This document shows positions 1 to 44,880 of a DNA stretch of 64,000 nt, in pieces. Positions within the stretch are counted from its first letter, which is position 1. Each line of letters starts with the position of its first letter. Below the pieces are notes generated by a model. The model had not been told where the DNA came from, did not search any database, and worked only from the letters and a program-made list of their open reading frames with translations. The stretch comes from a virus: IMG/VR virus record IMGVR_UViG_3300030049_000007; one strand, given 5' to 3'. The translations under genes and the position numbers were made by a program.

Positions 1-3000
1 CGAGGCATTATTAATGAGGTTAGCACGGTCAAGGGTGATGGAAACGCCCAGTTTTGGCAGAATCTCCAAAATGGCTTACCCATACCTAAACCTCAAGTTC
101 CATTTGTATATAAGAAATTTGAAGCAATGCTTCATGCTGCTGGTATTAATGTTAGACATGATGGTTCTAGAAAAATATTATTACCTCTAATTGATTCTCA
201 AATAGATGAATTAGCTGGAGATAACGAAATTGAATCTTTTGGTATGTTAGATCATAATTTTGAACCAATCAAAGATGGGTTGTTTGATCGTCATACAACT
301 GGTGGTTCAAATGGTGATAAATGGGCAAAAATTACATTAGCTCATCCATTAGTTAATCCAATGTATGAAAATGCTGTCAAAACCATCTTAGGTCTTAAGG
401 ACTCTGAATTTAAAACAATTATAAAATTGGAAGGTGGTCATGATAAAATTAAAGGAATGTTGGCTAATCTCAATGTTCATGAGCAGATTGATAATCTTAC
501 GGCAGGTATCAAGACTGCGCCGAAAACTAAAAAAGATAAGCTGGTTAAACAACTTAAAATTTTCAAGTCACTTGATTCACTCAAGCTCTCTCCCGTTAAC
601 GCTTATATTACTTCCGTGGTTCCGGTTGTCCCTCCTACTTTCAGACCTATCTTTGAAATTCCCGGTGGGCATGTACAAACACATAGTTTAAATAATTTAT
701 ATAGAGATTTGGGTTTAATTAATAATACTATCAAAGAGCTTGGACGTACTCCTGAATTGACAGATGCACTTTATAATTCTCTGGGTGCAATTCAGGGTGT
801 AAATAATCCAATTACTAAACAAAATGAAATTAAAGGTGTTAAGGGTGCCATTCAAATTATCACAGGATCTGGTTCACCTAAATATGGGTTCTTTCAAAAT
901 AAAACATTACGTAAACAACAGGATTTATCAGGAAGAGCAACTGCTGTATTAAATAATAATCTTAATATGGATCAAATTGCTATTCCTGAAAAAATTGCTA
1001 AAGTAATTTACAAGCCATTTGCTATTAAAGAATTAATTAAAAATGGTTATAGTTATCAAGAATCTGTAGATCATATAGATCATTTAGATAATATTGGAAA
1101 AAAGGCTGTTCAAGCTGCGATGTCAGATCGTCCAGTGTTAATGAATCGCGCTCCATCATTACATAAATTTTCAATTATGGCATTTCAGCCAACATTAACT
1201 AAAAATCTTTCTATTGAAGTTCCAGGGCTTATCGTTAAACCTTTTTCATTAGATTTTGATGGAGATACATTAGTTCTGCATGTGCCAGCTACCGAAAAAG
1301 CACGTAAAGAATCTTTTGGATTAATGCCAAGTAAGAATTTATATAATCCTAGAATGCGTACTTTAAATTATGCTCCAGATCAGGGAGCTATTCTAGGATT
1401 GCATTTACTTTCTCAAACTGAAGAAGGTTTAGTTAAGATAAATGATTTATTTCCAAAAGATATTTTGCCTATTGGTTCAAAAATTACTAAAAAGATGGTG
1501 GATAAAATACTTGCAAATTTAGCAGAAAAGTATCCAGAAAAATATAATGAAATTACTACCAAATTAAAACAAATGGGCGATACTTATGCTACTAAAGCAG
1601 GATTTTCTTTATCCTTAGCAGATCTTCCTAATAATTCTAAAGAAGTTAATAAAGAATATAAATCTGCTGTAGGTTTATTAAAATCAAAATCATTAAGCGA
1701 TGAAATTAAACTAAACGCTTTACTTAAAGCTGATAAATTTATTAAAGATAATGCATTAAATGACAAAACTAATAATTTTGTGACTATTGTAGCTTCTGGT
1801 TCTAGAGGATCGTCTGAACAGATAAAACAGATGTTATTTGCCCCTGGAGTTATGAGTGATCATAATGGAGATCCATTACTTCATCCAGTTTTAACTAATT
1901 ATTCACAAGGTATGCCCTTTAACGATTATTGGACTACTTTATATTCTGCACGTAAAGCTGCTTTAGATAAACAGTTAATGACTGCTAAACCTGGCGCTTT
2001 AAATAAAGAGGTAGTAAATACTACAATGAGTATTGTAATATCGGAAAATGATTGTGGAACTAAATTAGGTATTCCTATGAATACCGATGATAATAATCTT
2101 GTAGGAAGATATTTAACGAATGGCACATTAGTGAATAAAAGTAATATAGAATCTATACGTGATAAACATAAAGAAGTAATAGTTAGATCACCTACCACCT
2201 GTAGGGCATCACATGGGATTTGTCAGAAATGCTTTGGTATTGATGAATATGGTAAACTTCCAGATATTGGTCATAATGTTGGAATTAAATCAGCTCAAGC
2301 AGCAACAGAACCTTTAACTCAGGCAGCTATGAAAACTTTCCATATGGGTGGAACGGTTTCTGGTGGTGGTGGTGTATTTGGTGGTTTTGAACATGTCAAT
2401 AATTTTCTCGTTTCTCCAGAAACTTTTAAAGATCGAGCTACGTTATCAAAATTAGATGGAAAGATTACAAGTATAACTCCAGGGTCTGCCGGTGGTTTCC
2501 ATGTTAATGTAAATGAACAAGATCATTTTATAACTCCTGGCTCTGGTAGTCTTAAAGTTAAAGAAGGTGATAAAGTAAAGAAAGGCGATTTATTAAATAA
2601 TGGTATTCCTCATCCTAAAGAAGCTATACATCTTTTAGGTGAATTAGGTGGGCTTCATAAAATTACAGAGACTCTTCATAATATTTATAAAAATTCTGGC
2701 ATTTCTATTGATAGAAGAAATTTAGAGACAATTGTTAGAGGTATGACAGGATTTGGAATAGTAGAAGATGAAGGAACTCATAAACATTTCGTAAAGGGAG
2801 ATGTAGTACCTTTAAGTCAAATTTATGAATTTAATACAACAACTAATAAATCCTATAAATTACCTTTAAATGATGCTTTTGGAAAAAGTTTAGATGAAAA
2901 TATCGGATCTTTTAAAATTGGAAATATAGTTAATTCTAATATGATTAAATCTTTACAAAAAACACATAAAGAAATTACTGTAAAGGAAAATCCTGTAACT

Positions 3001-3198
3001 TATGAACGTACCTTACTGGGAGTACAGCAAGCACCACTTAAGTCTCACGACTGGGCTAATCAGCTTGCTTTCCGATATCTCAAACGTGGTTTGCAGGAAG
3101 GATCAACTTATGGTTATTCTTCAGATGTTCATGGATATTCTCCTATAGCTCCATTTGTTACTGGTCAAATGGAAGATGGACCAGAAGGAAGATATTAA
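1..3198 (+). CDS. rpoBC: DNA-directed RNA polymerase, RpoB C-terminus fused in frame to an RpoC (beta')-like region; 5'-truncated by the window edge
   Basis: Frame is open from nt 1 (RGIINEVSTVKGDG...PQVPFVYKKFEAMLHAAGINV, resembling the RpoB C-terminus). RpoC motifs follow: VPVVPPTFRP, GFFQNKTLRKQQDLSGRA, LMNRAPSLHK, catalytic DFDGD (1252-1266), CRASHGICQKCFG, MKTFHMGG. Confidence 0.92.
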   Translation, partial: RGIINEVSTVKGDGNAQFWQNLQNGLPIPKPQVPFVYKKFEAMLHAAGINVRHDGSRKILLPLIDSQIDELAGDNEIESFGMLDHNFEPIKDGLFDRHTTGGSNGDKWAKITLAHPLVNPMYENAVKTILGLKDSEFKTIIKLEGGHDKIKGMLANLNVHEQIDNLTAGIKTAPKTKKDKLVKQLKIFKSLDSLKLSPVNAYITSVVPVVPPTFRPIFEIPGGHVQTHSLNNLYRDLGLINNTIKELGRTPELTDALYNSLGAIQGVNNPITKQNEIKGVKGAIQIITGSGSPKYGFFQNKTLRKQQDLSGRATAVLNNNLNMDQIAIPEKIAKVIYKPFAIKELIKNGYSYQESVDHIDHLDNIGKKAVQAAMSDRPVLMNRAPSLHKFSIMAFQPTLTKNLSIEVPGLIVKPFSLDFDGDTLVLHVPATEKARKESFGLMPSKNLYNPRMRTLNYAPDQGAILGLHLLSQTEEGLVKINDLFPKDILPIGSKITKKMVDKILANLAEKYPEKYNEITTKLKQMGDTYATKAGFSLSLADLPNNSKEVNKEYKSAVGLLKSKSLSDEIKLNALLKADKFIKDNALNDKTNNFVTIVASGSRGSSEQIKQMLFAPGVMSDHNGDPLLHPVLTNYSQGMPFNDYWTTLYSARKAALDKQLMTAKPGALNKEVVNTTMSIVISENDCGTKLGIPMNTDDNNLVGRYLTNGTLVNKSNIESIRDKHKEVIVRSPTTCRASHGICQKCFGIDEYGKLPDIGHNVGIKSAQAATEPLTQAAMKTFHMGGTVSGGGGVFGGFEHVNNFLVSPETFKDRATLSKLDGKITSITPGSAGGFHVNVNEQDHFITPGSGSLKVKEGDKVKKGDLLNNGIPHPKEAIHLLGELGGLHKITETLHNIYKNSGISIDRRNLETIVRGMTGFGIVEDEGTHKHFVKGDVVPLSQIYEFNTTTNKSYKLPLNDAFGKSLDENIGSFKIGNIVNSNMIKSLQKTHKEITVKENPVTYERTLLGVQQAPLKSHDWANQLAFRYLKRGLQEGSTYGYSSDVHGYSPIAPFVTGQMEDGPEGRY

Positions 3199-3467: not shown

Positions 3468-5207
3468 ATGTCCTTAAACGAATTATTCGTCTTAAATTCA
3501 TCCATTCGTTTATCGGCTGATATGAATAGTTGGGGCGATCAAGTTATAAGCCAACTTATTAAATCATATCCGTCGCTCTCAAGTTTGGTGGGAGAAGTTG
3601 TTTTCGCCAAGACCGATACCGTAAAAGGTAATGCATTGGGATACATTACTTTAATCGGTAAAGTTCAGAGGATTCCATTTATTGTCGATGAATATGATCT
3701 AAATCCATTAGACATATATATAGACAATGGTAAATATCTACCTCTTTCAGAAAGAGCAGTTAATAGTTTAAATTCTAGAACTTGGCCCTTTCGTCTTATA
3801 TCCCAAACAGAAAGAAATGGAATTCTTAAGACTGCTTCGTTATTCGAGAATAATGGCATTTTGAAGGCAGAGTTTGTAAAAAAGAATAAAGAAACTTTTG
3901 AAAAAATTGCTGCTGAGTTTCCAGAAATTTTAGATAACTTTACTATCCGCAATACTCAGAAGGCCAATTCTGAATTTGCAGTACGTTGTTTTATTAAAGA
4001 AGCCGCAGATGCAAAACCAATTGTGGTCCGCGATCTTATTGCTGAAGATAAAGATTATAAAATTTCAGAATTTGCTGATAAATTCGGAAAAGATTTTCTT
4101 TCTGAATTAATGAGTAAGGGTGAAGCTATTGTTTCAAATATGCCTCCTAAAGTTAGATTAGCAATTGATAGTATGGAAATTAAGGGACTTTATAAAACTT
4201 CTGAAAATAGAGAAGGTTATCTTTGGCATAATGGAACTCCAATCGTAGCCAAGAGATTTGATCATTATCGTATGTCTGATTTAAAACGATCATCTATAGC
4301 TCCCTCTATTATTATAACAGAATGTGGCAAGTATTTTCAAAATGGAACATTAACAACTAAAGATGCCGGCAACGTTCCTAAGCATAAAGATAAGGTAGCT
4401 CCACAAAATGGTGATTATGCAGTAATTACCATTGGAGATAGTTGCTTTGGTCCATTTTTTATTAATAGTATTACAAAAATGGGTGCTGATAAAATTTACA
4501 ATATTACTACTGATGAATTAAAAGTAGTAAATCTTAAGACTAGTGAAGATATTAAAACTATAGTACAGTTAGATGAGAATAATTATTTATTCTCACAGAA
4601 TGCTCAGATTTTTAAAATTCATGTATCTGATATTGAGAATCCAAAAGATTTTGTTAAATCTGCTGGTTTGAAAGTTTCAGTATCAAAGCAGTTAGATGGT
4701 AACTTCTTAATTAGTGATTCTGGAATTTCTGGAATAGATTCTAATAAACTGAAAAATTTAAAGAAGGGTGATGCTACGGTAGTTTTAATGCATTGTGGCT
4801 TATCTGAGACAGATGCTAAATATGCCCTGATGCGGGCATTAACTAATAATACTTATTCTTTTGATGCACCAGAAAAACAGAAAGTTTCCTCAGATAAAGA
4901 TGTAACCTTAGAAAAGAAGGCTGAGGAAATTGTAAGTTACTGTAATGAAAATGAAGTATTAAAAATGGCCGCTGTGAGTGGCGATAAATCTAACGTGGAT
5001 TTAGCCTTGGGACTTAATTTAATTAATTATAGTAATATTAAACGATTTAAATTAATAGTTCCAGAAATTTATACTATGTTAGATAAATTATGTAAATTAC
5101 TAATTATTAAGCGCATTAATCGTAATTTATTTAACTTAGATGATACTCAACTTTCTCAAGCCATTCGCGCTTTGGACGAGATTTCGTTTGCCCTTAATTC
5201 CTTGTGA
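3468..5207 (+). CDS. Hypothetical protein, probable virion/head protein with K-x-A motifs
   Basis: 579-aa ORF with upstream GGAG; contains LKTAS, EKIAA, IKEAA, VKSAG, EKKAE, LKMAA. Confidence 0.6.
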   Translation: MSLNELFVLNSSIRLSADMNSWGDQVISQLIKSYPSLSSLVGEVVFAKTDTVKGNALGYITLIGKVQRIPFIVDEYDLNPLDIYIDNGKYLPLSERAVNSLNSRTWPFRLISQTERNGILKTASLFENNGILKAEFVKKNKETFEKIAAEFPEILDNFTIRNTQKANSEFAVRCFIKEAADAKPIVVRDLIAEDKDYKISEFADKFGKDFLSELMSKGEAIVSNMPPKVRLAIDSMEIKGLYKTSENREGYLWHNGTPIVAKRFDHYRMSDLKRSSIAPSIIITECGKYFQNGTLTTKDAGNVPKHKDKVAPQNGDYAVITIGDSCFGPFFINSITKMGADKIYNITTDELKVVNLKTSEDIKTIVQLDENNYLFSQNAQIFKIHVSDIENPKDFVKSAGLKVSVSKQLDGNFLISDSGISGIDSNKLKNLKKGDATVVLMHCGLSETDAKYALMRALTNNTYSFDAPEKQKVSSDKDVTLEKKAEEIVSYCNENEVLKMAAVSGDKSNVDLALGLNLINYSNIKRFKLIVPEIYTMLDKLCKLLIIKRINRNLFNLDDTQLSQAIRALDEISFALNSL

Positions 5208-6136: not shown

Positions 6137-7183
6137 ATGTTAATGTCTGAATTTTTCGTAAGAGATTTAGATCCAGAAATGGGTACCGCAGTAGCAAATC
6201 GCACCTATTTACGCCGAGGGGAAAACTGGGGAGATTTGGCTAAGCGAGTTGCATTAGGTAACTCTTTACTAGACCCATCAGGAGAAAATGATAGATTGGA
6301 TTTAGAAAAAGCTATTTGCAATGCATCATTTCTTACTGCGGGTCGGCATCTTCAACATGGGGATGCAGACCAACCTAATCGAAACATAGAAGTTTTCACA
6401 AATTGTTCAACAGCTTGCACTTCTTTTATGGAATTTTTGTTACTTTTAAATGGTTCAGGTGTTGGACGTAATTATAGTGATGAATTTATGGTAACTGACT
6501 GGCGGAACATGCCGCATCTTTATTGCGTATTAAGTGCGGATCATCCTGATTTTGAAAGACAATATTTTAAAGATTATACTCCTAAAGTTAATGTAATTGC
6601 TTTAGAAGATGTTGAAGCTTATCCACAGAATCCAGATCTATTTCATGAAGTAGAAGATAGCCGTGAAGGATGGGCTAAAGCTTTAGAAATTTTAGAAGTT
6701 GCTGCATTTGAAAAACATCCTCATGATCATTATGTTTTTGATTTTAGTAAAATTCGTAAATACGGATCACCTATTAAAGGTATGCAGAATAGACCTGCTT
6801 CAGGACCATTACCTTTAATTTACGCTTTTAAACAAGTTGCTAAAGTTAAATATAATCAAGGAATGATGCCATGGATGCAGACAATAGTTATAGATCATTA
6901 TTTCTCAGAGGCAGTAGCGAACGGCGGAGCAAGAAGGTCTGCACGAATCGCAGTTAAATACTGGAGAGATAAAGAAATAATGAAATTTATTCATCTTAAG
7001 AGAGATAGACCAGAACTTTGGTCATCGAACGATTCTGTAGGAGTAGAAAATTTATTCTGGAAAGAAGCAAAAATTCTAGGATCAACTGCTAATAATCTTT
7101 ACTTAGAAATTACCAAAAGTGTATTTCAAGATCTTACTGGTGAACCAGGTCTTATCGCGCTTGATCAATTGACCATCAAATAA
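6137..7183 (+). CDS. nrdJ: Class II (B12-dependent, RTPR-like) ribonucleotide reductase, N-terminal part
   Basis: RTYLR, FTNC, NGSGVG, DSREGW, DFSKIR, ASGPLPL, RRSA, GEPG motifs. Confidence 0.85.
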   Translation: MLMSEFFVRDLDPEMGTAVANRTYLRRGENWGDLAKRVALGNSLLDPSGENDRLDLEKAICNASFLTAGRHLQHGDADQPNRNIEVFTNCSTACTSFMEFLLLLNGSGVGRNYSDEFMVTDWRNMPHLYCVLSADHPDFERQYFKDYTPKVNVIALEDVEAYPQNPDLFHEVEDSREGWAKALEILEVAAFEKHPHDHYVFDFSKIRKYGSPIKGMQNRPASGPLPLIYAFKQVAKVKYNQGMMPWMQTIVIDHYFSEAVANGGARRSARIAVKYWRDKEIMKFIHLKRDRPELWSSNDSVGVENLFWKEAKILGSTANNLYLEITKSVFQDLTGEPGLIALDQLTIK

Positions 7184-7197
7184 AAGGAATAATCAAT

Positions 7198-8643
7198 ATG
7201 ATTGGATCTACTAAATATCAATTATCAGAAGGTGCAAAAAAGCTTCATGAATATACATCTAATATAATTAATAAATCCAAATATCCTCATATTACTAATC
7301 CATGCGTAACTAAAGATACTCAGATTACAACTACTGATGGAATTAAATTAGTTTCTGAATTAATTGGAATCCCATTTTCCGTGAAATTTAATGGTAAAAT
7401 TTATCAATCATTAAAAGGATTCTGGTCAACAGGTAAAAGAGATATTTATAATATAACTACGAAAAATAAATCAATTAAAGCTACACCTAATCATAAATTT
7501 GGAACACATGGATATACTGGATTAGTTTGGAAAAGATTAGATGCATTTAAGGTTGGTGACTTCATTGCAACTGATGGATTAGATGAAAAAATAGTTTCAA
7601 TTACTAAATGTGATAGTGAGGAAGCTTTTGACTGTACCATTGAAGATATTCATTGCTATGTTTCTAATGGATTCTTGAGCCATAATTGTGGTGAGATCAC
7701 ATTGAAATCTGATGGCGGCTATTGTGTCATAGGGGATATCGTACCTTTTTTCTGTTCTACTTTAGATGAAGTTAAATCAACGGCAGAATTAGCTACTCGA
7801 TTTTTAATTAGAACAAATCTTATGAGTGCAATTTATTCTGATGAAGTAAAACGGACTAATCGTATCGGAATTGGAATGACATCAATTCACGAGTTTGCCT
7901 GGAAATTCTTTGGCTATGGTTTTCGTGATTTAATTGATGAGAATCTATCTCAACCATTCTGGAATTTTATTGACGAGCTACGGCAGACGGCAGAAAATGA
8001 AGCGGCCAGATACTCGCTGTCACTTAGTTTAAATATCCCACATACCGTAACCACCTTGAAGCCGAGCGGATCTATAAGTAAGCTATATAATTTAACTGAG
8101 GCAGCTCACCTTCCCTATAAACGTTATTATTTACGATGGGTTCAATTCCAAAAAGATGATCCTCTTTTAGAACAATATAAAAAAGATGGATATCCAGTAA
8201 GAGAATTAACTAGTATAGCTTCTACTAGTATTGTTGGATTTCCAACTCGTCCTCTTATTACTACTTTAGGAATGGGAGATAAATTAGTTACCGCTGCTGA
8301 AGCTACTCCAGAAGAACAGTATAAGTGGTTGATGTTATTAGAGAAATATTGGTTAGGAGAAGGAAAAAACAATCAGGTGAGCTATACTCTTTCCATACCT
8401 ACTGATAAATTCACATTAGAAGACTTTAGGGAAACGTATATTAAATATCAATCTCAAATTCGTTGTTGTACAGTATTACCAATTATTAGTGATGATACTC
8501 TTAAAACGTTATATGAATATCTTCCTAATGAGGATATATCTGAAGAAGAATTTATTGCTATTCAAAATCATATTCAGAAGAAACGGGATGTGGAATTTAG
8601 TATGGATGAGTTACAGTGTAGTTCTGGTGCATGTCCTCTCTGA
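7198..8643 (+). CDS. nrdJ: Class II ribonucleotide reductase, C-terminal part, intein-containing
   Basis: TNP[intein]CGEI, NRIGIG, TTLKPSGSISKL, C-terminal CSSGACPL; has its own AAGGA RBS. Confidence 0.85.
   Translation: MIGSTKYQLSEGAKKLHEYTSNIINKSKYPHITNPCVTKDTQITTTDGIKLVSELIGIPFSVKFNGKIYQSLKGFWSTGKRDIYNITTKNKSIKATPNHKFGTHGYTGLVWKRLDAFKVGDFIATDGLDEKIVSITKCDSEEAFDCTIEDIHCYVSNGFLSHNCGEITLKSDGGYCVIGDIVPFFCSTLDEVKSTAELATRFLIRTNLMSAIYSDEVKRTNRIGIGMTSIHEFAWKFFGYGFRDLIDENLSQPFWNFIDELRQTAENEAARYSLSLSLNIPHTVTTLKPSGSISKLYNLTEAAHLPYKRYYLRWVQFQKDDPLLEQYKKDGYPVRELTSIASTSIVGFPTRPLITTLGMGDKLVTAAEATPEEQYKWLMLLEKYWLGEGKNNQVSYTLSIPTDKFTLEDFRETYIKYQSQIRCCTVLPIISDDTLKTLYEYLPNEDISEEEFIAIQNHIQKKRDVEFSMDELQCSSGACPL
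7303..7686 (+). mobile_element. Mini-intein (128 aa, no endonuclease) at the catalytic NP/CGE site
   Basis: Starts CVTKDT, has block-B ATPNHKF, ends YVSNGFLSHN followed by Cys. Confidence 0.9.
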
Positions 8644-9821: not shown

Positions 9822-9858
9822 TCCATATATATTATAACAAAATAACATCAATTATTGC
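9822..9858 (-). promoter_or_regulatory. Conserved phage promoter, copy 1 (GCAA-N18-TATAATATA.ATGGA)
   Basis: Same 37-nt architecture at 39109-39145 and 50931-50967. Confidence 0.7.
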
Positions 9859-18410: not shown

Positions 18411-19042
18411 TATACTTCTCCAAGAATTAATTCCTTAAAATAAGGAAGTTGTTCGATTGCAGGGCAGATAACTTCACGCCATTCTGGCATTCTGTGATTA
18501 AGTCTGTCTCTATGTATGGACGCAAGACATTCATAACTAAATGATCTATTACGAGCCTGTAACCAACCTTCCGGTAAACATGACTTCAGAATTTCAATTG
18601 GAATTTCTTGTCGAGAACCATATTGAAGAACTAATGAATCAATATTCCATTTAAATTGATTAATTACATATTCGGGAGTATAATCTACAAACATATCTTT
18701 AGTAATTTCTTTAACTTCTTTTAAAAGTGTATACATGGTACTTTCAGAAGAGATATTACCCACACCAACACTATAAGTATCCAGTTCAGCCCATATAGAA
18801 CGTGGCATATTAATGTGGAACCAAGCCGTAATACCTCTACGAAATTTACTATGCACAGGACCTTGTTTAATTAATTTAGATGCAAGAGCGGCATCTTTAG
18901 GACCAAGAATTAAGTTAGTGTCATAAGGAAATTTTGCTTTTAATTCAATTCGAGAATCACCTTTTGATTTAGTTGGAAATCTCATTCCAGCGGTAGATGC
19001 TATAAAACCAGCAACTTCAATTAATTTAAATTCTACATTCAT
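18410..19042 (-). CDS. ThyX-like (flavin-dependent thymidylate synthase fold) protein
   Basis: HSKF, PRSIWAELDTY, SSEST, LPEG, RLNHRMPEW motifs of the divergent phage ThyX-like family. Confidence 0.65.
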   Translation of the reverse strand: MNVEFKLIEVAGFIASTAGMRFPTKSKGDSRIELKAKFPYDTNLILGPKDAALASKLIKQGPVHSKFRRGITAWFHINMPRSIWAELDTYSVGVGNISSESTMYTLLKEVKEITKDMFVDYTPEYVINQFKWNIDSLVLQYGSRQEIPIEILKSCLPEGWLQARNRSFSYECLASIHRDRLNHRMPEWREVICPAIEQLPYFKELILGEV

Positions 19043-19051
19043 ATCATATCC

Positions 19052-19246
19052 TTATGACAGACCAATTAAGTTATCAACTAAAATTTCTTCAAGTTCAATA
19101 TTATATAAATAATGTTCAATACAATTAATATTTTCTGTTAATAAAATTTCAGTAGGAATATTAAAATGTAATTGTAGATTACACTTAATAGATCTATTAA
19201 TATTTATAGTTTCAAGTTTATCAATTTCATATTTGATAGAATGCAT
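19052..19246 (-). CDS. Hypothetical protein
   Basis: 64-aa ORF tiling the operon. Confidence 0.5.
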   Translation of the reverse strand: MHSIKYEIDKLETININRSIKCNLQLHFNIPTEILLTENINCIEHYLYNIELEEILVDNLIGLS

Positions 19247-19247
19247 A

Positions 19248-19655
19248 TTAAAGATTTGGATTAAGTGAAATCTTATAATTCATAGCTTTATCAAATGCTG
19301 TGAAGATAGGTTCCATACAAGCACTCCAGTCAAATTCTTCAGATTGGTCTGTGTATGTATTCCCACTATCTTCATCCATATATTCATAATTAGAACATTC
19401 AATTTGCTCCGCGACAACCCCATCTAACAAAATTAATTTTTCCAAATCATTATTACCTAAAGATCCAACCACGGGAAATCGAAAACTACAATATCGATTC
19501 TTGCCATATTCATCAGGATTATTGAATCTGATATAGCAAAAATCATGATCAATTCTACTAGTCCATTTCCAGGTGTGGCCGTAGAGATTGGCACACAATA
19601 CCTGAAGTGAACCTAATGAAATAATTCTAACTTTATTTACTAACCAAGTGATCAT
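19248..19655 (-). CDS. Hypothetical protein
   Basis: 135-aa ORF. Confidence 0.6.
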   Translation of the reverse strand: MITWLVNKVRIISLGSLQVLCANLYGHTWKWTSRIDHDFCYIRFNNPDEYGKNRYCSFRFPVVGSLGNNDLEKLILLDGVVAEQIECSNYEYMDEDSGNTYTDQSEEFDWSACMEPIFTAFDKAMNYKISLNPNL

Positions 19656-19864
19656 TCTACTTTCCTTCCATCAATTTCAATCACTTTACTTATACCAGTT
19701 TTTTCATCTAATTCAAGTGTTAATTCGAATTCATCACAAGTATGACTAAACATTTTAGTAGCTTCATAAGATAAACCTATTTCAACTCCTTTATCCCATA
19801 AAGAATCATCATTACCATGAACGTAAACCTTAACTATCTTCATTATCCTCTCCATAAGTTTCAT
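19652..19864 (-). CDS. Hypothetical protein
   Basis: ORF track, ATGA overlap. Confidence 0.55.
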   Translation of the reverse strand: MKLMERIMKIVKVYVHGNDDSLWDKGVEIGLSYEATKMFSHTCDEFELTLELDEKTGISKVIEIDGRKVE

Positions 19865-20144
19865 CTAAATATTCTTTAGTTTCTTCTTCAGTTTTAAATG
19901 GACCTGACCAATCTGTACTATCAAGATAACCGGGCATTGTCAAACGACCAAACCATCCCTGTTTTGATTGATAAAGACCTAATTCTTTTGCATATTCTAT
20001 AGTAAATGGATGATAAGGATCATTATCTTCTGGACAAATCTCTTCTACAATATCCTCAAAAGACAATATACCTTGAGGTACACAAGTAATACCATTTTTA
20101 CTTTCAATAATATCAAACCAATCAAATACAATTTCTGGTATCAT
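19830..20144 (-). CDS. Hypothetical protein
   Basis: 104-aa ORF with GWFGRLTMPGYLDSTDWSGPF. Confidence 0.65.
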   Translation of the reverse strand: MIPEIVFDWFDIIESKNGITCVPQGILSFEDIVEEICPEDNDPYHPFTIEYAKELGLYQSKQGWFGRLTMPGYLDSTDWSGPFKTEEETKEYLDETYGEDNEDS

Positions 20145-23266: not shown

Positions 23267-23298
23267 AAAAAAAAGGGGAAATTACTTTCCCCTTTTTT
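23267..23298 (-). terminator. Intrinsic terminator
   Basis: AAAAAAAAGGGGAAA-TTAC-TTTCCCCTTTTTT after the 23316-23807 gene. Confidence 0.75.
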
Positions 23299-23315
23299 CT
23301 TAGATATTTAAATAA

Positions 23316-23807
23316 TTAAGCGTCTTCCGCAACCGCTTCATCCTCGGGTTCGGCAGTATCAGTGGCGCTATCGAAATCACGAACGTATTCCAGCTTGTAA
23401 TACGCATCGCCATTAGGACCATCCTTGAGGGGAACAGCCTCGCCACTCTTCAGCTTAACGAGCCAGTTGGTTCCGGGCTCACGACCAGTATTCGAAATAG
23501 CCTCATACTGGAAATCCTTACGCAACTTATCAGCCTTAGCGGTCAGAGTATCGTCAAGCTTAACAACTCCACCAAGAATAGCCTCGATGAGCTGCTTGGA
23601 ACGAATACTAACCACACCAGAACTCTGGCCGGCCTTACGCACTACAGAACTAATAGAACTCTGCACCTTTTCGCTGTCAGACTCATTAATGGCCTGTCCA
23701 ACGATAATAGCAAGCTTGGCTGGGTTAACGGAACCGACGAATCCACGGAAGGACTGGCCAAACTCAGTAGCGGGCTTGCGGGGGGCGCGGGTCTTAGCTT
23801 CAGACAT
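23316..23807 (-). CDS. Hypothetical, probably highly expressed protein
   Basis: 163 aa; GC-richer codons; AGGAG RBS; own terminator; basic N-terminus and acidic C-terminus. Confidence 0.7.
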   Translation of the reverse strand: MSEAKTRAPRKPATEFGQSFRGFVGSVNPAKLAIIVGQAINESDSEKVQSSISSVVRKAGQSSGVVSIRSKQLIEAILGGVVKLDDTLTAKADKLRKDFQYEAISNTGREPGTNWLVKLKSGEAVPLKDGPNGDAYYKLEYVRDFDSATDTAEPEDEAVAEDA

Positions 23808-23935
23808 TTTTCTCTCCTAGAGACGGTCAACAACGGTGCTGCCGTATGGTGTATTAGAAGTATCACACGTTTCGGATGTGACTTCAAGAAATTTCGAAAA
23901 AAAACGTATGGTGAAAATTTTTTCTGAAAAAGCGA

Positions 23936-24358
23936 CTAATCACTTGTTAATAGAAAGTTTTGAAAATCTTCTTTTGATGATGGTATTAAGTTAACCGTTA
24001 TTTCTTTATATGAAGTTTTCAACCAGTCATTATTTTTATCCTTTTCGAAATAGTTAAGAAATGATTTAATTTTATCCCGTGAAGTAGCTGACGAACTGCT
24101 AATTAACTTCACATATGTATTATAACAAAAACTAGGCTCTTTTTGCAACTTGATAATTTTATACTTAATATTAGTAATAGCTTTTAATTTATCAATTAGA
24201 TTTTCTTCAAATATAGTAGAACTATAATTATGAACTAAAATTTGCTTTGGTTTATATCTATAAATAATAATAATGTGTCCGTCTCTAAAAACTTTAATAG
24301 ATTTTTGATTTAAGGAAAGTTGAAGCAATTTCTTAAACTGGTCAATCTTTTCTTTCAC
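23936..24358 (-). CDS. Hypothetical protein
   Basis: 140-aa ORF with GTGA coupling. Confidence 0.55.
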   Translation of the reverse strand: MKEKIDQFKKLLQLSLNQKSIKVFRDGHIIIIYRYKPKQILVHNYSSTIFEENLIDKLKAITNIKYKIIKLQKEPSFCYNTYVKLISSSSATSRDKIKSFLNYFEKDKNNDWLKTSYKEITVNLIPSSKEDFQNFLLTSD

Positions 24359-25401
24359 TTAGAAAGTCCTCCAACAAAAGTTAATTGAGGACTTTTCCTC
24401 GCTACAAACATCTGATTATTTTTAGCTAACAAAATTTCAATGTAAGGAGTATTTTTAGTAAACTCTGTAGATGTAATTACACCTAGATGATCAAAAGGAA
24501 TTTTAATAGAAATACTATCTTCATTATTAAATTTAACATCTCCAACTAAGAATTCTGCACTTTGTAAATATATAAGTTTTAATGTATTTTTATCAAAAAT
24601 CATTTCTACAGATCTTACATCAACATCACTCTTTTTATGTAAACTTTGAATAATATTAAAAATAGAATTTAATTCACTAGTATTAATCTCTGCTATAATT
24701 TTATGAAATTCATTTACTTTATCTGAAATTGGTTTAATAATTGCAGACTTAGAGTTTGTTTGTGGAATATATATTTCACAATTATCATTTGAGAAAAAGA
24801 TGTGATTTTCGTTCGCATCCATTTTATCAAATGTATCAACAAATATTTTTGGAGCTACTTTAAGATTGATTTTGAAATTTGGAAGATTAGAATTTAATGG
24901 AACATAAACTACTTCATGAGGACTTGCATAGTAGATTAAATTTCCATCAAATACAATTGGATAGTTTTCAACTAAACATAATGGAACTACTGACTTTAAT
25001 CTATCAAAGAAAACTTGTTCTACATTATTCCAATTATTATGATCTTTCATTTGATAAACTTTGTCAGGAGAATCTGCTACAATTGTAAATTTATGTAAAT
25101 CAGTTTTTACATTTAATCTATAATTATCAGTATTTAGATTAAATTTAATATCTACATCTTTTGGCATACTACTGATGATAGTATAGAATTTAAATACATC
25201 TACACAAAATTCTCCTAACAATGGTGATCCGTGGTTATTTAAACTAATTTGTTTAATACCAGAATCACCATCGCAGCACCAATAAGTTATTTGCTTTTCA
25301 GTTCCCTTTATTTTTACATTTTTACATAATTCATAAGATGATTTCTCATTTGCAAATTCTTTTACTTTTTTTAAATATTTAGTTAATACACTAGCGATCA
25401 T
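24355..25401 (-). CDS. DNA polymerase III beta sliding clamp-like protein
   Basis: 348 aa; N-terminal pattern (LKKV...NVKI...GEFCVD...IISSMP) like DnaN domain I; replication context. Confidence 0.55.
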   Translation of the reverse strand: MIASVLTKYLKKVKEFANEKSSYELCKNVKIKGTEKQITYWCCDGDSGIKQISLNNHGSPLLGEFCVDVFKFYTIISSMPKDVDIKFNLNTDNYRLNVKTDLHKFTIVADSPDKVYQMKDHNNWNNVEQVFFDRLKSVVPLCLVENYPIVFDGNLIYYASPHEVVYVPLNSNLPNFKINLKVAPKIFVDTFDKMDANENHIFFSNDNCEIYIPQTNSKSAIIKPISDKVNEFHKIIAEINTSELNSIFNIIQSLHKKSDVDVRSVEMIFDKNTLKLIYLQSAEFLVGDVKFNNEDSISIKIPFDHLGVITSTEFTKNTPYIEILLAKNNQMFVARKSPQLTFVGGLSK

Positions 25402-26618
25402 AAATATTGATCCACTAACTGATCTTGAATTTCTTCTTCTAATTCTTCTACATCTTCTTCAGTTAACTTAATTGAATTAAATTTAGTATATTGAGAATTG
25501 GTTGCAATTTTAGCAATCTTCTTTTGAACATCTTCAGATAAGTTAAATTTCTTCACAATCTTCTTAACTTTAGTATTTGACATATTTAATTGTTCAAAGA
25601 TTGCACCTTCAGGAACTTCAGCTTCTTTTAAAATATCAATTAATTTTAATGTATCTTCAAATTCGATTTTATCATAACTTTGGGGACCATATTGCTCATC
25701 CTTAAATTTAATTGGACTATTATTATCAATCCAAAGTTTTAAAATCTCTTCCATATTTTTAATGCGAATAGAAGCTAGTTTATAAGCTCCAAATAATTTA
25801 ACTGCATCTTCTTCAGTATTAATTTGTTCAATCTTAGCAAAAGCATTTTTATATGCAGGACAAGTAGCTCGACTTTCGCAAAGAATACAATGTCCCCCAG
25901 CACTAGGTTCTGGAGGATTTTCTTGACTAAGAAGATTATTAAGAGCTTCAATCTCTTCAACAATCATTGGAGCGAGAGTATCTAATTCTTCTCGATAAAT
26001 ATCAAAATAATCTGAAATGAATCCATAACGAATAAAGTTAAATCTAAACTTAATTACATTCAATTCAGGATATTTCATCAAAAGAAGCAATGAGTAAATC
26101 TTACGCTGCAAAGATTTACTCATATAATCTTTAGTATAAATAGTTCTTACACTTTTATAATCATCAACATAACCAATATCACCGTCAGCATAAAAAAGAT
26201 CCACACCACCAGAAAGATATGGATTAGGATCTTCGGTAATATTTAAATCTTTATCAATTGCATATCGTGCTTCAATATCAATAAGTTCAAATTCTTTCAG
26301 AGCAGACCAGTTAAAATTAGTCTTAATATTATCTAAAATTAAAAGAGCTTCTGCAATTTGATCTTCTTGAAGTACATTAAGATATTTATATTTAATTTTA
26401 TCAAATTCAGTATAATCAGTATCAACTTTATTCTTAATACAATATTTTCCATATTCTTCTAATACATCATGAAGAACGGTTCCTAACTTTGCAAATTTAT
26501 TTTTATAACCGGGAAGCTTGAGACGATAAGTATTATAGCACCACAAGCGACATTGATGCATTGCATTAATAGCCGAATACCTAGCTCCGATTACTGCCAG
26601 ATTCGAGTTGTTTGCCAT
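25398..26618 (-). CDS. PD-(D/E)XK Cas4/RecB-like exonuclease
   Basis: YSAI..HQC, LGTVLHDVLE, GGVDL, DDYKS, Q..IY, C..C.....CP. Confidence 0.8.
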   Translation of the reverse strand: MANNSNLAVIGARYSAINAMHQCRLWCYNTYRLKLPGYKNKFAKLGTVLHDVLEEYGKYCIKNKVDTDYTEFDKIKYKYLNVLQEDQIAEALLILDNIKTNFNWSALKEFELIDIEARYAIDKDLNITEDPNPYLSGGVDLFYADGDIGYVDDYKSVRTIYTKDYMSKSLQRKIYSLLLLMKYPELNVIKFRFNFIRYGFISDYFDIYREELDTLAPMIVEEIEALNNLLSQENPPEPSAGGHCILCESRATCPAYKNAFAKIEQINTEEDAVKLFGAYKLASIRIKNMEEILKLWIDNNSPIKFKDEQYGPQSYDKIEFEDTLKLIDILKEAEVPEGAIFEQLNMSNTKVKKIVKKFNLSEDVQKKIAKIATNSQYTKFNSIKLTEEDVEELEEEIQDQLVDQYL

Positions 26619-27324
26619 TTAAATATTGCTCCACGACAGACTTCAGACCAATGATATCAAATTTATTCAGATAAAAGAATATCACAATAGCTTCTTCAAA
26701 ATTATAATCTACATGGTTATGGCACTCTAAACGAGCTATTCTCGTATAGGTGCCATATTTAGATCTTAATTTATTAACCTGTACAGTTAATCTTTTTTCT
26801 AAAGCTAATAGCTCATTAGATGGATAATGAGATTTATAACAAGTGGTAGTCTCATCTACCATAAAGAATCCGGGATATTCCTGAGACATTCTTTCTAAGC
26901 AATACTCTTCATCACAATCATAATCCGCATTTACAGCATCGATAAGATGCTGGTTTTTACTAAATCTATGAATCCAATCTAATTTTTCTTTTTTATAGAT
27001 TAATTCTATATCTTCTTCAAGATCCATTTTTTCAATTATATTATATTGAGGAAATGGATCTTCTAATTCTATATCTTCTTGATATTCTTCTAATACTACT
27101 TTTTCTTTTTTAACTTTAGGTTTAACTTCTACATAAATTAAAGTATCACAATAACATATAACTTTACCTTTATGTATACTATAAGATGGATTTACTAAAT
27201 TTGAAATAAGTATTCTTTCAGGTACCTTTAATGGAGTAATTTTTCGAAATACAATACTACATTCTTTAAAGGCTATATTATTGCATTTTATTTTTAGATT
27301 ATTGAAGGCAATGAATTTAGCCAT
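26581..27324 (-). CDS. Hypothetical protein
   Basis: 247-aa ORF. Confidence 0.6.
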   Translation of the reverse strand: MAKFIAFNNLKIKCNNIAFKECSIVFRKITPLKVPERILISNLVNPSYSIHKGKVICYCDTLIYVEVKPKVKKEKVVLEEYQEDIELEDPFPQYNIIEKMDLEEDIELIYKKEKLDWIHRFSKNQHLIDAVNADYDCDEEYCLERMSQEYPGFFMVDETTTCYKSHYPSNELLALEKRLTVQVNKLRSKYGTYTRIARLECHNHVDYNFEEAIVIFFYLNKFDIIGLKSVVEQYLNGKQLESGSNRS

Positions 27325-27340
27325 AATAATTTATCTTTCT

Positions 27341-28240
27341 CTAAAAAGAAAATTCATCAGAATCTTCAGTAATTGCTTCTTTAGGTTCATCTACAATTTC
27401 AACATCGATTGGCTTTTCACTCTTTGTAGTAGGTGGAATTTCATCATTAGAACCATCATAAGCTTCCTTTTCAGCAGCCGTAGAAAGTTCTTTCATAACC
27501 TCCTTATTTGGAAGCGCACCCATAGAAAGATGCTTTGCTTGAGCCTCCATTAAAGTTCCGATTGTGGTTCCAGCACCTTCTGCAATCTCATTATAACTAA
27601 ATGGAATCTCAAGTTCTACAGTAGGAACATTTGTGTTCTTACCACCTACACTTACCTGAACCATTACAACATGCAATCTTACTTTAAGACCAAAGAGAGT
27701 TTTACGAATTGCATAGATGTTTTGTAATGCATCGTTGATTTTGCCTATAGTCATGATGGAATGAGTGGTAAATTTAATAATTCCACCAGAGATTTTCATT
27801 TCTGGGATTATTACACTTAGCACTCCAGTTGGTTTGCAAGTATTAATGATTCCTTTATTTGTTTTAGTTAATCGAAACTCACAAGTTTTATAATTACATT
27901 CAATTTCTTTCTTATTTCCATCAGAATCAGTCCTAATTGCAGTTTCGCCATTACCACGACAATTGCATGTTGTCCCAGGATAGTTGAAAAAATCCGTGTA
28001 GAAAACTTCTTCAGGATGATGATCAATCAATACGACATCGACTAGCTTAGGCTCAATTGTACCATATTTCGCTTTGAAATATTCTTCTAATTTCTTAAAT
28101 CTTGGAGCAGTTTTAGTTTTTGGATCAAATGGATGCGTAATAATAAAATGATCTAATTTGATTGGGTAGTTTTTCTCTGCATGTCTCTCGCCTATAGCCA
28201 AACGAGCTTGGATGGTATGTTGATATATGTTAAGAGTCAA
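27341..28240 (-). CDS. Recombination-associated protein (Gp3/recombination-directionality-factor-like family), acidic tail
   Basis: RLAIGE..NYPIKLDHF, CRGNGE, C...C...CKP.G.L, C-terminal EDSDEFSF. Confidence 0.55.
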   Translation of the reverse strand: MTLNIYQHTIQARLAIGERHAEKNYPIKLDHFIITHPFDPKTKTAPRFKKLEEYFKAKYGTIEPKLVDVVLIDHHPEEVFYTDFFNYPGTTCNCRGNGETAIRTDSDGNKKEIECNYKTCEFRLTKTNKGIINTCKPTGVLSVIIPEMKISGGIIKFTTHSIMTIGKINDALQNIYAIRKTLFGLKVRLHVVMVQVSVGGKNTNVPTVELEIPFSYNEIAEGAGTTIGTLMEAQAKHLSMGALPNKEVMKELSTAAEKEAYDGSNDEIPPTTKSEKPIDVEIVDEPKEAITEDSDEFSF

Positions 28241-28241
28241 T

Positions 28242-28673
28242 CTATTCTCCTTCTATGATTAGTTGATTTATATAACTTTCTAGATTTTTATATTCAGTAT
28301 AAGGAATTATTAACAATCTAATATCTCTTTCAGCACAATATTGTTCCTTAAGATCATCGCGTTTTAACTGAGCATTAAAGGCTTCTATAGTTTTATAAAA
28401 AGTATTAGGATAAATATAATGATAATTTTGACATATTTCAATATTAGTTCTCTTGCTTAATCCAAGTTTCGTATGAGCGCATTTATCACACCAGCTATGC
28501 ATATTTCTAATAGAATGTAAATTAGCTTGCCATTTATGACCTTCTTTACATCTCCAAGACATTTTACTAATAGCATCTTTATATTCTGTAGAATCACAAA
28601 ATCCATTATTTGCTTTTGCGGCTTTTTGACAATCCAATAAAGTTAATTTTTTACTCATTTCTCTAATAACCAC
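28242..28673 (-). pseudogene. Degenerate zinc-ribbon/Vsr-like homing endonuclease with internal deletion
   Basis: WRCKEGHKW...WCDKC joined directly to HY...RDDLKEQYC...LLIIPY; the central D/E nuclease motif is absent. Confidence 0.5.
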
Positions 28674-30262
28674 CTTAAAGAAGTCTGTCTGGATTTCTGT
28701 TTATTTTGTATCGCTTCTTGTAGGACATTTTCTGATGGAGCTATAATAAGAATTTTATTTTTAGCTCTTGTAATAGCTGTATAAATTAAATTTCTATTCA
28801 AAATACTGCTCTCATTCACAAATAGAACAACTTTATTATACTCTGAGCCCTGTGATTTGTGAACCGTAATCGCATAAGATAATTCAAGCTGCCATAATAA
28901 AGAATGTGAATATTCAATAATTTTATCTTTATATTCAACTCTAATTATACTTAAATTACTATTAATAATTACACCACATTCTCCATTAGATATACCCAAA
29001 TCTTTATTATTTTTTACATGAATAACATGATCTCCGGTATGAAATCCATCAATCTTACTAGGATTTAAAATGTTCTGAGCTATCTTATTTATGATAGTCG
29101 AACCTTTTTCCTTAAGCACAGAAAGATACTGGGCATCACGCCATTCTGGGTGTTGGCAAATTTTAGATGCTATTCTTTCTAGATCCCATCTTTTAGGAAA
29201 ATAAGATAATACCTGATGGTCACTTCCGTAGACGAGATTATTACCAGCGTGAATATTATGTGCTGACTTAATGATCGATCCAGGTGATTGCCTCATGATT
29301 ATATCTAAATGGTAACTCAATCCGATCCTTGAGTCAAGAACACACTTAAGAACCTCACCTGGACCAATTGAAGGCAACTGATTTGGATCTCCGACAAGCA
29401 AAAGACAACATCCTTCACCTATTCCATTAGAAACCCATCCTGCAATCTCAGCATCAAGCATCGATGTTTCATCAATAATAACAATCTTATTTTCAATAAT
29501 ATTAACATAACCATTAGGATTAAAGAAAAAACTATGTAGAGTAGATGCGGGTATTCCACATAGTTCAGACATTCGAGAGGCCGCCTTACCAGTAGGAGCT
29601 AGTAAAACTACATTGTCAGAGCCGAAAGATTCGACTATTGCTCTAACCGTTGTAGTTTTACCAGTTCCCGGTAAGCCAGTTAAAATTACAAGTTTATTAT
29701 ACTCAAGTGCATCAACGACGTTCTTTTGGTCATTATTTAATTCTTCATATAAAAATGAATAGTCTTTCCTAAATCCTGTAAAATAACCATTTTGTTTTGC
29801 CAAGTTCTTTAACAACTCTGCAAAACTTCTCTCAGAATTATAATATTTCGAAAGAAAGTAATTGCCTTTATCGCTTACAAAAAGCAGTCCCTCATTTTGT
29901 AATGAATTGATTGCTTTTTGTTTTACATAGTCTGTGAAGTTGCAGCTTTTAATAAATGAATTTATTTGCCATTCTTTTCCATAAGTATGTCCCTGACTAG
30001 CAATACGATCGAGAGCAGCTTGTAAATAAGTTTTACCTTTTTCTACTTCATCATCTATATGAAATTTTTCTGCAAGTTGTTCACATAGCTTTAAACTAAA
30101 TCCATTTTCAATATTATAGAGACACCATGGATTCATTTTAACTAATATTAACATTCTTTCTAATTGAAGTTCGTCATAATTATCTAAAACATATAGTGGA
30201 ATTCCTAATTCTCGAAGTTGTAATTGATAATTAAATAACTTAGTCTTTAATGCTGCAATCAT
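28655..30262 (-). CDS. RecD-like SF1B helicase
   Basis: GLPGTGKTT, APTGKAA, IDETSM, GDPNQLPSI, RQ, YAITVHKSQGSEY, YTAITRA. Confidence 0.92.
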   Translation of the reverse strand: MIAALKTKLFNYQLQLRELGIPLYVLDNYDELQLERMLILVKMNPWCLYNIENGFSLKLCEQLAEKFHIDDEVEKGKTYLQAALDRIASQGHTYGKEWQINSFIKSCNFTDYVKQKAINSLQNEGLLFVSDKGNYFLSKYYNSERSFAELLKNLAKQNGYFTGFRKDYSFLYEELNNDQKNVVDALEYNKLVILTGLPGTGKTTTVRAIVESFGSDNVVLLAPTGKAASRMSELCGIPASTLHSFFFNPNGYVNIIENKIVIIDETSMLDAEIAGWVSNGIGEGCCLLLVGDPNQLPSIGPGEVLKCVLDSRIGLSYHLDIIMRQSPGSIIKSAHNIHAGNNLVYGSDHQVLSYFPKRWDLERIASKICQHPEWRDAQYLSVLKEKGSTIINKIAQNILNPSKIDGFHTGDHVIHVKNNKDLGISNGECGVIINSNLSIIRVEYKDKIIEYSHSLLWQLELSYAITVHKSQGSEYNKVVLFVNESSILNRNLIYTAITRAKNKILIIAPSENVLQEAIQNKQKSRQTSLRWLLEK

Positions 30263-43640: not shown

Positions 43641-43670
43641 GAAATGCCTAGTCTATTTGATAGGCATTTC
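43641..43670 (+). promoter_or_regulatory. Perfect 10-bp intergenic hairpin
   Basis: GAAATGCCTA / TAGGCATTTC. Confidence 0.5.
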
Positions 43671-43694
43671 AGCAATTATTATCTAGAGGATCAC

Positions 43695-44042
43695 ATGAGT
43701 TTAATTAAATTAGCTATGCGAACTGGTAAAGCTATTAGAGGTTTATTTAGTGCCGTAGAAGCTGATGTTAAAAATTCTAGAAATGCAACTAAAAAAGCTA
43801 TTCAGGGCGCTTATGAAGGTGCCAAGAATGGTGATTTAGGTGCTGCTTATTTAAAACAACGTAAAATGAATAGTGATTTAGGTAAGAAGATTCGTAAATT
43901 AAGAGATCAGATTAAAGGTCATGAATCTGAAATTAAATCTCATAAATTAAAAGAAAAGATTATCGGTGGAGTTGGATTAGGAACTACCATTGGCGCTGGA
44001 AGTCTAGCTTTTCGTCATAAAAAGAATGTGGAGAAATTATAA
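43695..44042 (+). CDS. Small basic protein with MSLIKLA leader (putative internal virion protein)
   Basis: GAGGA RBS before ATG 43695; C-terminal IIGGVGLGTTIGAGSLAF. Confidence 0.7.
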   Translation: MSLIKLAMRTGKAIRGLFSAVEADVKNSRNATKKAIQGAYEGAKNGDLGAAYLKQRKMNSDLGKKIRKLRDQIKGHESEIKSHKLKEKIIGGVGLGTTIGAGSLAFRHKKNVEKL

Positions 44043-44317
44043 TGTCTATCGTAAAACTTGCTTTTAATCTTTCAGGGATTAAAGATGCAGTAGTTAATGC
44101 TGCTAAAGGTACTGCTATTAAATCTGAGGCTCATCGCCTTGAGAATAGTACCTTAACTTCATTACGCAGACTTCCTACTGCTGCTGATAAACTTAAACAT
44201 TTTGCTACTACTAAATCTGGCTTAAAATCTTTAGCTCCTAGTGCTGCTCTTTATGGAGGGGCTGCTTTAGGTGTTGGCGCTGCGGCAAAAGCTTTAACTG
44301 GCAAAAAGAATGATTAA
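44042..44317 (+). CDS. Small basic protein with MSIVKLA leader
   Basis: C-terminal AALYGGAALGVGAAAKAL. Confidence 0.7.
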   Translation: MSIVKLAFNLSGIKDAVVNAAKGTAIKSEAHRLENSTLTSLRRLPTAADKLKHFATTKSGLKSLAPSAALYGGAALGVGAAAKALTGKKND

Positions 44318-44663
44318 AGAAATTGCATTAAAATATGATGATTTAGGATTATTTAAACTTGCATCTATTCTTGAAAAAGATGGTGCGGTTAATCCTATGC
44401 AGATGGCCATTAGTAAGACTATGAATCCTGAACAGGGATTACATTATAATCTTGCTACCGATGCTGCCGCTGCTGCTAAAAAAGATCCTTCTAAATTAGG
44501 ATTAATGAGACAGCGTTTACAGGGATTAAAAAAGACTGGACCGTTAAGATTAGATGATGCTGTTAAATCTGGCATTGTTAATTCCTTAAAGAAACCTACT
44601 CCTATAGCAGAAGTTATTCCATTTGCTAATAAACTTAAATCTATGGCTTTAAAAGTGAAATAA
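44310..44663 (+). CDS. Small basic putative internal virion protein
   Basis: FKLAS motif; operon position. Confidence 0.6.
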   Translation: MIKEIALKYDDLGLFKLASILEKDGAVNPMQMAISKTMNPEQGLHYNLATDAAAAAKKDPSKLGLMRQRLQGLKKTGPLRLDDAVKSGIVNSLKKPTPIAEVIPFANKLKSMALKVK

Positions 44664-44664
44664 T

Positions 44665-44880
44665 ATGAGTTTAATTAAATTAGCATTTAAAGACTCAAAA
44701 GAATTAGATAGTGAATATATAGATAATAGATGGCTTGGAAGACGGGCAAGAGGTAAGTTATTAACTTATCCATTAGCTGCATTTGGAATGTTACCTGCTC
44801 CATTACTTGGACATTACTTAGATCATAGACGTAAAGAGAAAGATTTTATGAATCATCCTGAAAAATTTAAAAAGAAATAA
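44665..44880 (+). CDS. Small basic protein with MSLIKLA leader
   Basis: Hydrophobic LLTYPLAAFGMLPAPLLG. Confidence 0.7.
   Translation: MSLIKLAFKDSKELDSEYIDNRWLGRRARGKLLTYPLAAFGMLPAPLLGHYLDHRRKEKDFMNHPEKFKKK

Follow-up and report, generated by a model that had tools for sequence, protein, structure and literature searches.

To our knowledge, cellular multisubunit RNA polymerases all depend on an alpha-type platform that joins the two large subunits, beta and beta'. In Helicobacter and Wolbachia beta is fused head-to-tail with beta' in one polypeptide, and these RpoBC proteins are housekeeping enzymes of about 2,900 amino acids (aa) which continue to form complexes with alpha2 and omega. The existence of such a fusion means that the termini of beta and beta' lie close enough in the assembled enzyme. 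Here we analyse a gene of a tailed phage, from the IMG/VR virus record IMGVR_UViG_3300030049_000007, that likewise encodes both subunits in one chain. Its 3' part opens the window, as we call the whole 64,000-nucleotide (nt) stretch of DNA analysed, which corresponds to positions 26366-90365 of the 157,395 base pair (bp) record. At a length about 30% below that of the Helicobacter and Wolbachia RpoBC, the phage protein has no zinc ribbon and neither alpha nor omega at its side. Moreover, it groups with phage sequences and not with bacteria, whereas the rpoBC of Campylobacter stays with the bacteria (in a tree without Helicobacter and Wolbachia).

Tailed phages with bacterial-type beta and beta' are known from metagenomes as mReC (Weinheimer & Aylward 2020, PMC7481178). 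Their subunits can be recognised with cellular profiles and branch apart from the bacterial enzymes, as is also the case in the small trees presented here. In the portion of that paper available to us, the mReC rows give beta and beta' as two proteins, of ~1000+905 aa or ~1360+1005 aa, several mReC contigs list two polymerase sets, 'a' and 'b' (Supplementary Data 2), and fusion is mentioned for crAss-like phages only (PMC7481178). The lengths of mReC 'beta' in those rows (~1000-1050 or ~1360 aa) would fit cuts placed off the canonical subunit boundary, as in our relative L175 and in phage Arash. Capsid and terminase also differ, with PF07068 and PF03237 in mReC as opposed to an HK97-like capsid protein (a sub-threshold PF05065 match only) and a gpA-type terminase (PF05876, with PF03237 below the cut-off) in the phage genome studied here.

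The phiKZ- and AR9-like jumbo phages encode enzymes related to beta and beta' which do without alpha and omega, and one of their two sets is found in the virion; no sigma-70-type factor is known for these polymerases, and how phage multisubunit enzymes assemble in the absence of alpha is stressed as an unsolved matter (PMC7598289). Whereas in phiKZ and AR9 beta and beta' are each split into two or more polypeptides and come in two sets, the present phage has one chain, one set and a clear sigma-70-family partner. The crAss-like, YonO and tape-measure-fused P23-45 enzymes (PMC10770324) share with it the presence of both catalytic barrels on one polypeptide. However, those enzymes have diverged too far to be detected by cellular beta and beta' profiles and lack most bacterial domains, while the similarity of the window protein to bacterial beta and beta' runs from one end to the other.

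Cultured relatives exist in Salmonella phage Arash (OQ632216.1, PMC10585845) and in Vibrio phages D69, D181 and D148. Polymerases of the Arash/D69 type are homologous to the window protein over its full length, with 30-31% identity (97% query cover in D69), and the Arash-like phages share a homologous sigma factor and large terminase with the phage genome here, although the genes neighbouring the polymerase differ. Arash Gp206 covers residues 22-1399 of the window protein and holds the beta-beta' junction within one polypeptide. The gene that is continuous here is cut in Arash and the Vibrio phages at residue ~1400, giving a 1,527-aa protein with beta and the N-terminal part of beta' and a ~607-aa protein with the C-terminal part of beta'. 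The two pieces lie 0.6-4.7 kb apart, and a homing endonuclease is found between them in D181 and D148. Gp206 and Gp216 of Arash were annotated as 'beta' and 'beta'', with no mention of a fusion (PMC10585845). No description of a fused beta-beta' phage family was found in a full-text literature search, whose incomplete coverage makes this no proof of absence. The enzyme described below is a fused, sigma-paired, alpha- and omega-free variant of the known phage multisubunit polymerases, common in metagenomes and with cultured relatives.

Gene extent and domain content

Frame 1 is open from nt 1 of the window to the TAA at 3196-3198, in agreement with the initial annotation, which had reported no stop codon from nt 1. 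These 3,198 nt are the last 1,065 codons of a longer polymerase gene. The frame continues upstream of the window for 930 further codons, 1,995 in total, as far as a GTG/ATG pair at record positions 23576/23579 that is preceded by AAGGG. The full gene spans record positions 23579-29563 (1,994 codons from the ATG) and starts 2,787 nt upstream of the window. A stop/start pair just upstream, with no Rpb2 domains in frame, had been named in the initial annotation as a finding that would speak against a fusion; there is no such pair, and Rpb2 domains do lie in the frame. The database protein P0002 (1,994 aa, ATG start) is the same protein and recurs unchanged in 61 blocks from independent assemblies, therefore a local error of assembly or sequencing does not account for the fusion. 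A 127-bp repeat is present at both ends of the record, the usual sign of a circular assembly.

Pfam domains follow one another in a single chain in the order Rpb2_3 (residues 344-406), Rpb2_6 (611-909, 135 bits) and then Rpb1_1 to Rpb1_5 (1100-1717 and beyond). When compared with Salmonella RpoB by BLASTP, phage residues 756-981 align with beta residues 1050-1337 of 1342 (E 7e-15), and this alignment includes the EVSTVKGD...AAGINV stretch of the first ~50 window codons, rightly assigned to the RpoB C-terminus at the outset. The match to RpoC begins at about its residue 15, directly past the end of beta, in both the BLASTP and the multiple alignment, which bears out the earlier view that the end of RpoB runs into RpoC motifs. 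In addition, a phmmer search against solved beta' chains gave an E value of 5e-82. Residues 1-981 are a complete bacterial-type beta and residues 988-1995 a complete beta'. The record also encodes a large terminase, a head maturation protease, a major head protein, helicases and a ligase. The initial proposal of a compact, single-chain, bacterial-type beta-beta' RNA polymerase in a tailed phage is supported, its phage side by the terminase, the head protease and the major head protein.

Structure prediction is in line with this assignment. Residues 2-1012 and residues 900-1995 were modelled separately with AlphaFold, in both cases from an alignment of 50 sequences, and the models reached a mean predicted local distance difference test (pLDDT) score of 86.7 with a predicted template modelling score (pTM) of 0.79 for the first and 89.3 with 0.86 for the second. 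Foldseek related the beta half to full-length Thermus beta (TMq 0.75, ~1,120 columns) and the beta' half to full-length Firmicutes beta' (TMq 0.76). Judged from these models, both halves are complete, compact subunits of the bacterial type. The junction, with pLDDT above 90 in the second model, takes the shape of a hairpin followed by a helix.

The junction and the conserved parts of the chain

All features in this section lie on the plus strand and are given in window positions. The C-terminal end of the beta module occupies positions 1-153 (residues 931-981, ending in ...AAGINV) and corresponds by BLASTP to Salmonella RpoB residues 1289-1337 of 1342. It is followed at 154-171 by a connector, RHDGSR (residues 982-987), whose limits were read from an alignment that included the beta' N-termini of three bacteria as well as three phage relatives. 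This connector takes the place of ~5 residues at the end of beta and ~14 at the start of beta'. Past the connector, KILLPLIDSQ... lines up with IKIALASPDM..., the strand-helix element of beta' near E. coli residue 15. The beta-beta' fusion is almost seamless, and the junction is free of gaps in 96 fused relatives, down to 33% identity.

The beta' module extends over positions 172-3195 (residues 988-1995, stop codon at 3196-3198) and carries the Pfam domains Rpb1_1 to Rpb1_5. Near its start, at 277-330, the alignment places the site of the deleted N-terminal zinc-binding domain (DGLFDRH|TTGGSNGDKW). Relative to three bacterial beta' sequences the deletion is clean: a stretch of ~32 residues, which in bacteria carries the four zinc-ribbon Cys, is absent between nt 288 and 289, and no Cys occurs at this site in any of the 22 relatives displayed. 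The second zinc site of beta', by contrast, is kept at 2053-2232; its residues Cys1615, Cys1664, Cys1671 and Cys1674 are invariant in the family and align by BLASTP with E. coli C814/C888/C895/C898. The clamp coiled-coil at 667-795 (residues 1153-1195, aligned by BLASTP with RpoC 260-309) is ~14 residues shorter than that of E. coli, with helices at model residues 260-278 and 282-296.

The catalytic, Mg-binding motif DFDGD is found in the translation at 1252-1266, and its three Asp (D1348, D1350 and D1352) are invariant across the family alignments. Its context is SLDFDGD (1246-1266) and not NADFDGD, a Ser standing in place of the Asn that is Asn458 in E. coli beta'. This position is S, G, T or C in the phage's own subclade and Asn in about half of the 96 relatives. 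The Asn of NADFDGD contacts the sugar of the incoming nucleotide, thus the choice of substrate may differ in enzymes without it. The bridge helix region lies at 1930-2028 (residues 1574-1606, aligned by BLASTP with RpoC 767-805) and the trigger-loop region, read from the translation, at 2287-2400 (residues 1693-1730). The SI3 insertion of proteobacterial beta' is absent, as the BLASTP alignment ends at TFHMGG and resumes past the SI3 position. In the beta part, the motif ALRHGNKGV is present at residues 773-781, and RHGNKGV is kept across the family.

Distribution of fused and split forms

A word-indexed search retrieved more than 120 protein clusters of 1,974-2,080 aa whose domains follow in the same order, and relatives are encoded in at least 539 stretches of IMG/VR. 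Among the 80 best loci, a single frame remains open over at least 1,900 codons in 75, and three of the remaining five are interrupted by in-frame TGA only. Fusion is the common condition in this very large family of phages. The genes with TGA interruptions (L072:3959-10024 with 11 TGA, L090:4001-9958 with four and L088:3983-10045 with one) contain no TAA or TAG, which suggests that some phages of the family read TGA as a residue.

Five split arrangements were observed among the relatives, and in each of them the beta-beta' junction lies inside one polypeptide. The chain is cut after residue ~1399 in Arash and D69; another arrangement has a middle piece spanning residues 454-1401; in a third the cut is at ~1072, with an SNF2 helicase between the pieces. 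A cut at ~914 is found in a 224-kb relative (L174:8001-13233, proteins P0146, P0148 and P0150), where the upstream piece ends in a ~115-aa tail starting with C-F-x-G-D-T-E-V and the downstream open reading frame (ORF) has a ~42-aa leader before Ser914 and then spans the junction. We considered this locus as a truly unfused relative and rejected it, since its second ORF starts at about residue 914 and still spans the junction. From its sequence, the ~914 cut looks like a candidate natural split intein, which would re-join the chain; the Pfam intein model gave 14-15 bits on the pieces, below threshold. Many relatives, of 2,400-3,000 aa, carry intein and LAGLIDADG domains in the polymerase (P0037, P0046, P0055, P0065, P0073 and P0106, among others), and selfish elements seem to target the polymerase gene often.

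Trees were built with FastTree (43 rows, 1,907 columns) and, for beta only, with IQ-TREE in quick mode (52 rows, 936 columns). In both, the phage sequences are separated with support 100 from 16 bacterial rpoBC pairs, Campylobacter among them, and the split forms are scattered among the fused ones. These trees are small, have long branches and include neither an archaeal or eukaryotic outgroup nor the published mReC sequences, and the order of events is not settled by them. Contigs of 32-183 kb with the fused polymerase (L094-L104) were also seen inside metagenome-assembled genomes of Desulfatibacillum, Dependentiae, Anaerolineales, Leptolyngbyaceae, Thermoguttaceae, Myxococcales and Aenigmatarchaeota. 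An assignment of hosts from these contigs was rejected, because phage-sized contigs spread over many unrelated phyla carry no host signal; such placements are most likely binning errors.

Sigma factor, missing subunits and promoters

The first gene of the rightward operon that holds the polymerase is a 232-aa ORF at record positions 18681-19379, which matches Pfam Sigma70_r3 above the cut-off (32 bits). Pfam models of sigma regions 2 and 4 had no match in the phage genome, while the same searches match in control genomes. The family profile of this ORF, however, aligns with RpoS, SigA and RpoD from region 2 through region 4 (E 1.7e-19). It has 1,099 relatives in a 50%-representative library, is homologous to the Arash sigma factor Gp10 (E 2e-17) and is present in all five distant near-complete relatives (E 1e-58 to 1e-79). 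In close relatives the sigma gene also lies upstream of the polymerase.

A complex of this sigma with residues 985-1419 was predicted with an ipSAE of 0.72, the best control reaching 0.00. Of solved complexes, 58 of 80 attain this mark, and of mismatched pairs 2 of 110, counts that apply only approximately here, as our own alignments were used. At least 45% of the contacts agree between runs, and the partner pLDDT is at least 72. The predicted interface is the classical one, with sigma region 2 on the clamp helices. As complexes of sigma with beta' have already been solved, this result shows a likeness to them and not binding.

The polymerase gene is single in the genome and has no paralogue. 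Pfam searches for alpha (PF01000, PF01193) and omega (PF01192) gave no match in the phage genome, whereas all 14 control genomes match, and PF01000 was not found in the five distant near-complete relatives.

Seventeen near-identical copies of the motif tGCAAA-N14-TTTTGTTATAATATAtATGgAG were found, all on the minus strand. Four of these strict-motif copies are in the window, at 9839, 24127, 39126 and 50948, and 13 more at record positions 18665 and 102955-138121. Most of the 17 precede small genes at 102-138 kb. The other promoters are of the TTGACA/TGnTAnAAT type, and an extended -10 element (TTTGATATAATAAT, record position 18633) stands before the sigma gene. The full strict motif is present in the two closest relatives. 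It was rejected as a family-wide promoter, the exact core TGTTATAATAT being absent from five distant relatives, including Arash and D69.

A proposed single-chain holoenzyme

These data are probably best explained by a single-chain core RNA polymerase that, together with its own sigma factor, makes up a self-contained holoenzyme. In such an enzyme, the two double-psi barrels of the one chain would pack together to form the active centre, as they do in cellular polymerases. The covalent link would take the place of the alpha-dimer assembly platform and of the omega chaperone, neither of which is encoded by the phage. Promoters would be recognised by the 232-aa sigma factor, predicted to dock on the shortened clamp coiled-coil, and the resulting holoenzyme would read the sigma-70-like, extended -10 promoters of the phage genome.

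If this is true, one chain of ~2,000 residues would have the full bacterial architecture with only a 232-aa sigma as partner, which would show how far the requirement for alpha can be relaxed. It would moreover offer synthetic biology a compact polymerase that can be programmed through sigma, and would single out a large group of phages of 150-200 kb. If the enzyme is injected, these phages would also escape control directed at the host polymerase.

Alternative explanations and packaging

Some of the observations weigh against such a holoenzyme or against its packaging, and they have to be considered together with the rival explanations. The initial annotation had proposed to look for Rpb2_6, Rpb2_7 and Rpb1_1 to Rpb1_5 in the full ORF. 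The others match, but Rpb2_7 gives no score on the polymerase protein, therefore the similarity of the beta C-terminal end rests on BLASTP and on the fold match. One could suppose that an error in sequencing or assembly, or a stop codon that escaped notice, has joined adjacent beta and beta' genes, as the available mReC rows, with beta and beta' listed separately (PMC7481178), might suggest. We consider this extremely improbable, given the identical 1,994-aa protein in the 61 independent assembly blocks, the gap-free and conserved junction of the 96 fused relatives, the long single frame in 75 of the 80 best IMG/VR loci, with three others broken by TGA only, and the junction pLDDT above 90. 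A second concern is activity, which may be altered or reduced by the loss of the zinc ribbon and the change of Asn to Ser. These two traits, together with the shortened clamp helices and the S, G, T or C found at the Asn position in many members, would also fit a polymerase relic or a protein with a changed function, acting on other substrates or as a decoy that sequesters host factors. Either reading is unlikely, since all three catalytic Asp, RHGNKGV, bridge helix, trigger loop and second zinc site have been preserved throughout the family and a sigma factor accompanies the polymerase in each of the five distant relatives. Moreover, the 6-kb frame has stayed open at 30-80% identity over hundreds of genomes, which indicates purifying selection on the whole enzyme. 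The absence of alpha and omega holds at the sensitivity of Pfam, and both could be borrowed from the host. Because all promoters are sigma-70-like, they do not tell which polymerase reads them and could equally serve the host holoenzyme.

The time at which the enzyme acts is a separate matter. By analogy with Arash, it is quite possible, although we would not call it probable, that polymerase and sigma are late products which are packaged in the capsid and, once injected, begin early transcription. Packaging is suggested by the virion proteome of this cultured relative, which holds polymerase and sigma: by mass spectrometry Gp206 was the most detected protein, and Gp216 and the sigma Gp10 were detected as well (PMC10585845). 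The same virion preparation contained 116 proteins, including ribonucleotide reductases and ligases, and its authors concede possible carry-over (PMC10585845). A real competitor, only slightly less probable, is that the fused enzyme is absent from the virion, with the host polymerase transcribing the operon early and the phage holoenzyme taking over middle and late transcription, as T7 or the non-virion enzymes of phiKZ-like phages do. The extended -10 element TTTGATATAATAAT before the operon is usable by the host sigma-70 enzyme without a -35 element. The polymerase-sigma operon adjoins ribonucleotide reductase genes, whereas ~37 kb separate it from the head genes and the genes for terminase, protease and capsid. 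Only one polymerase gene is present, while phages with a multisubunit virion enzyme encode two sets (PMC7598289). An upstream 561-aa ORF was considered as the portal of Arash or D69 and rejected for lack of similarity to either, therefore an argument from a position next to the portal gene is not transferable to this genome. What speaks against a non-virion enzyme is the very high spectral counts of both polymerase pieces and sigma in Arash virions, and possibly also an N-terminal tag, MSLVKLA. Ten ORFs begin with it in the form M-S/G-L/I-I/V-K-L-A/S; some are in the head region (window 43644-44880 and 56117-56944), and two small ones are inside the sigma-polymerase operon (record 19756-20097 and 23267-23566), one of them directly before the polymerase, which is itself untagged.

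If polymerase and sigma are indeed packaged, we tentatively propose that chain and sigma might enter the cell together as a ready-made holoenzyme of two polypeptides, independent of the host polymerase, and that the covalent link could be an adaptation for refolding without alpha after ejection. This idea fits with the fact that all five split variants keep the junction intact.

Neighbouring genes

No convincing terminator was found on the plus strand after the polymerase gene. Directly 3' of it, on the same strand at window positions 3468-5207, lies a 579-aa ORF, possibly encoding an accessory protein, which had no Pfam or PHROG match. By tblastn it occupies the same position in 23 related loci, and its N-terminal ~100 aa are kept even in distant ones; it also shows weak collinear similarity to the ORF that follows the polymerase in Vibrio phage D69. 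Further downstream, the large subunit of ribonucleotide reductase is encoded by two adjacent ORFs, at 6137-7183 (348 aa) and 7198-8643 (481 aa), both assigned to phrog_367. In the closest relative, L010, the second of these parts is recovered by tblastn as three pieces over 3.4 kb, which suggests inserted elements.

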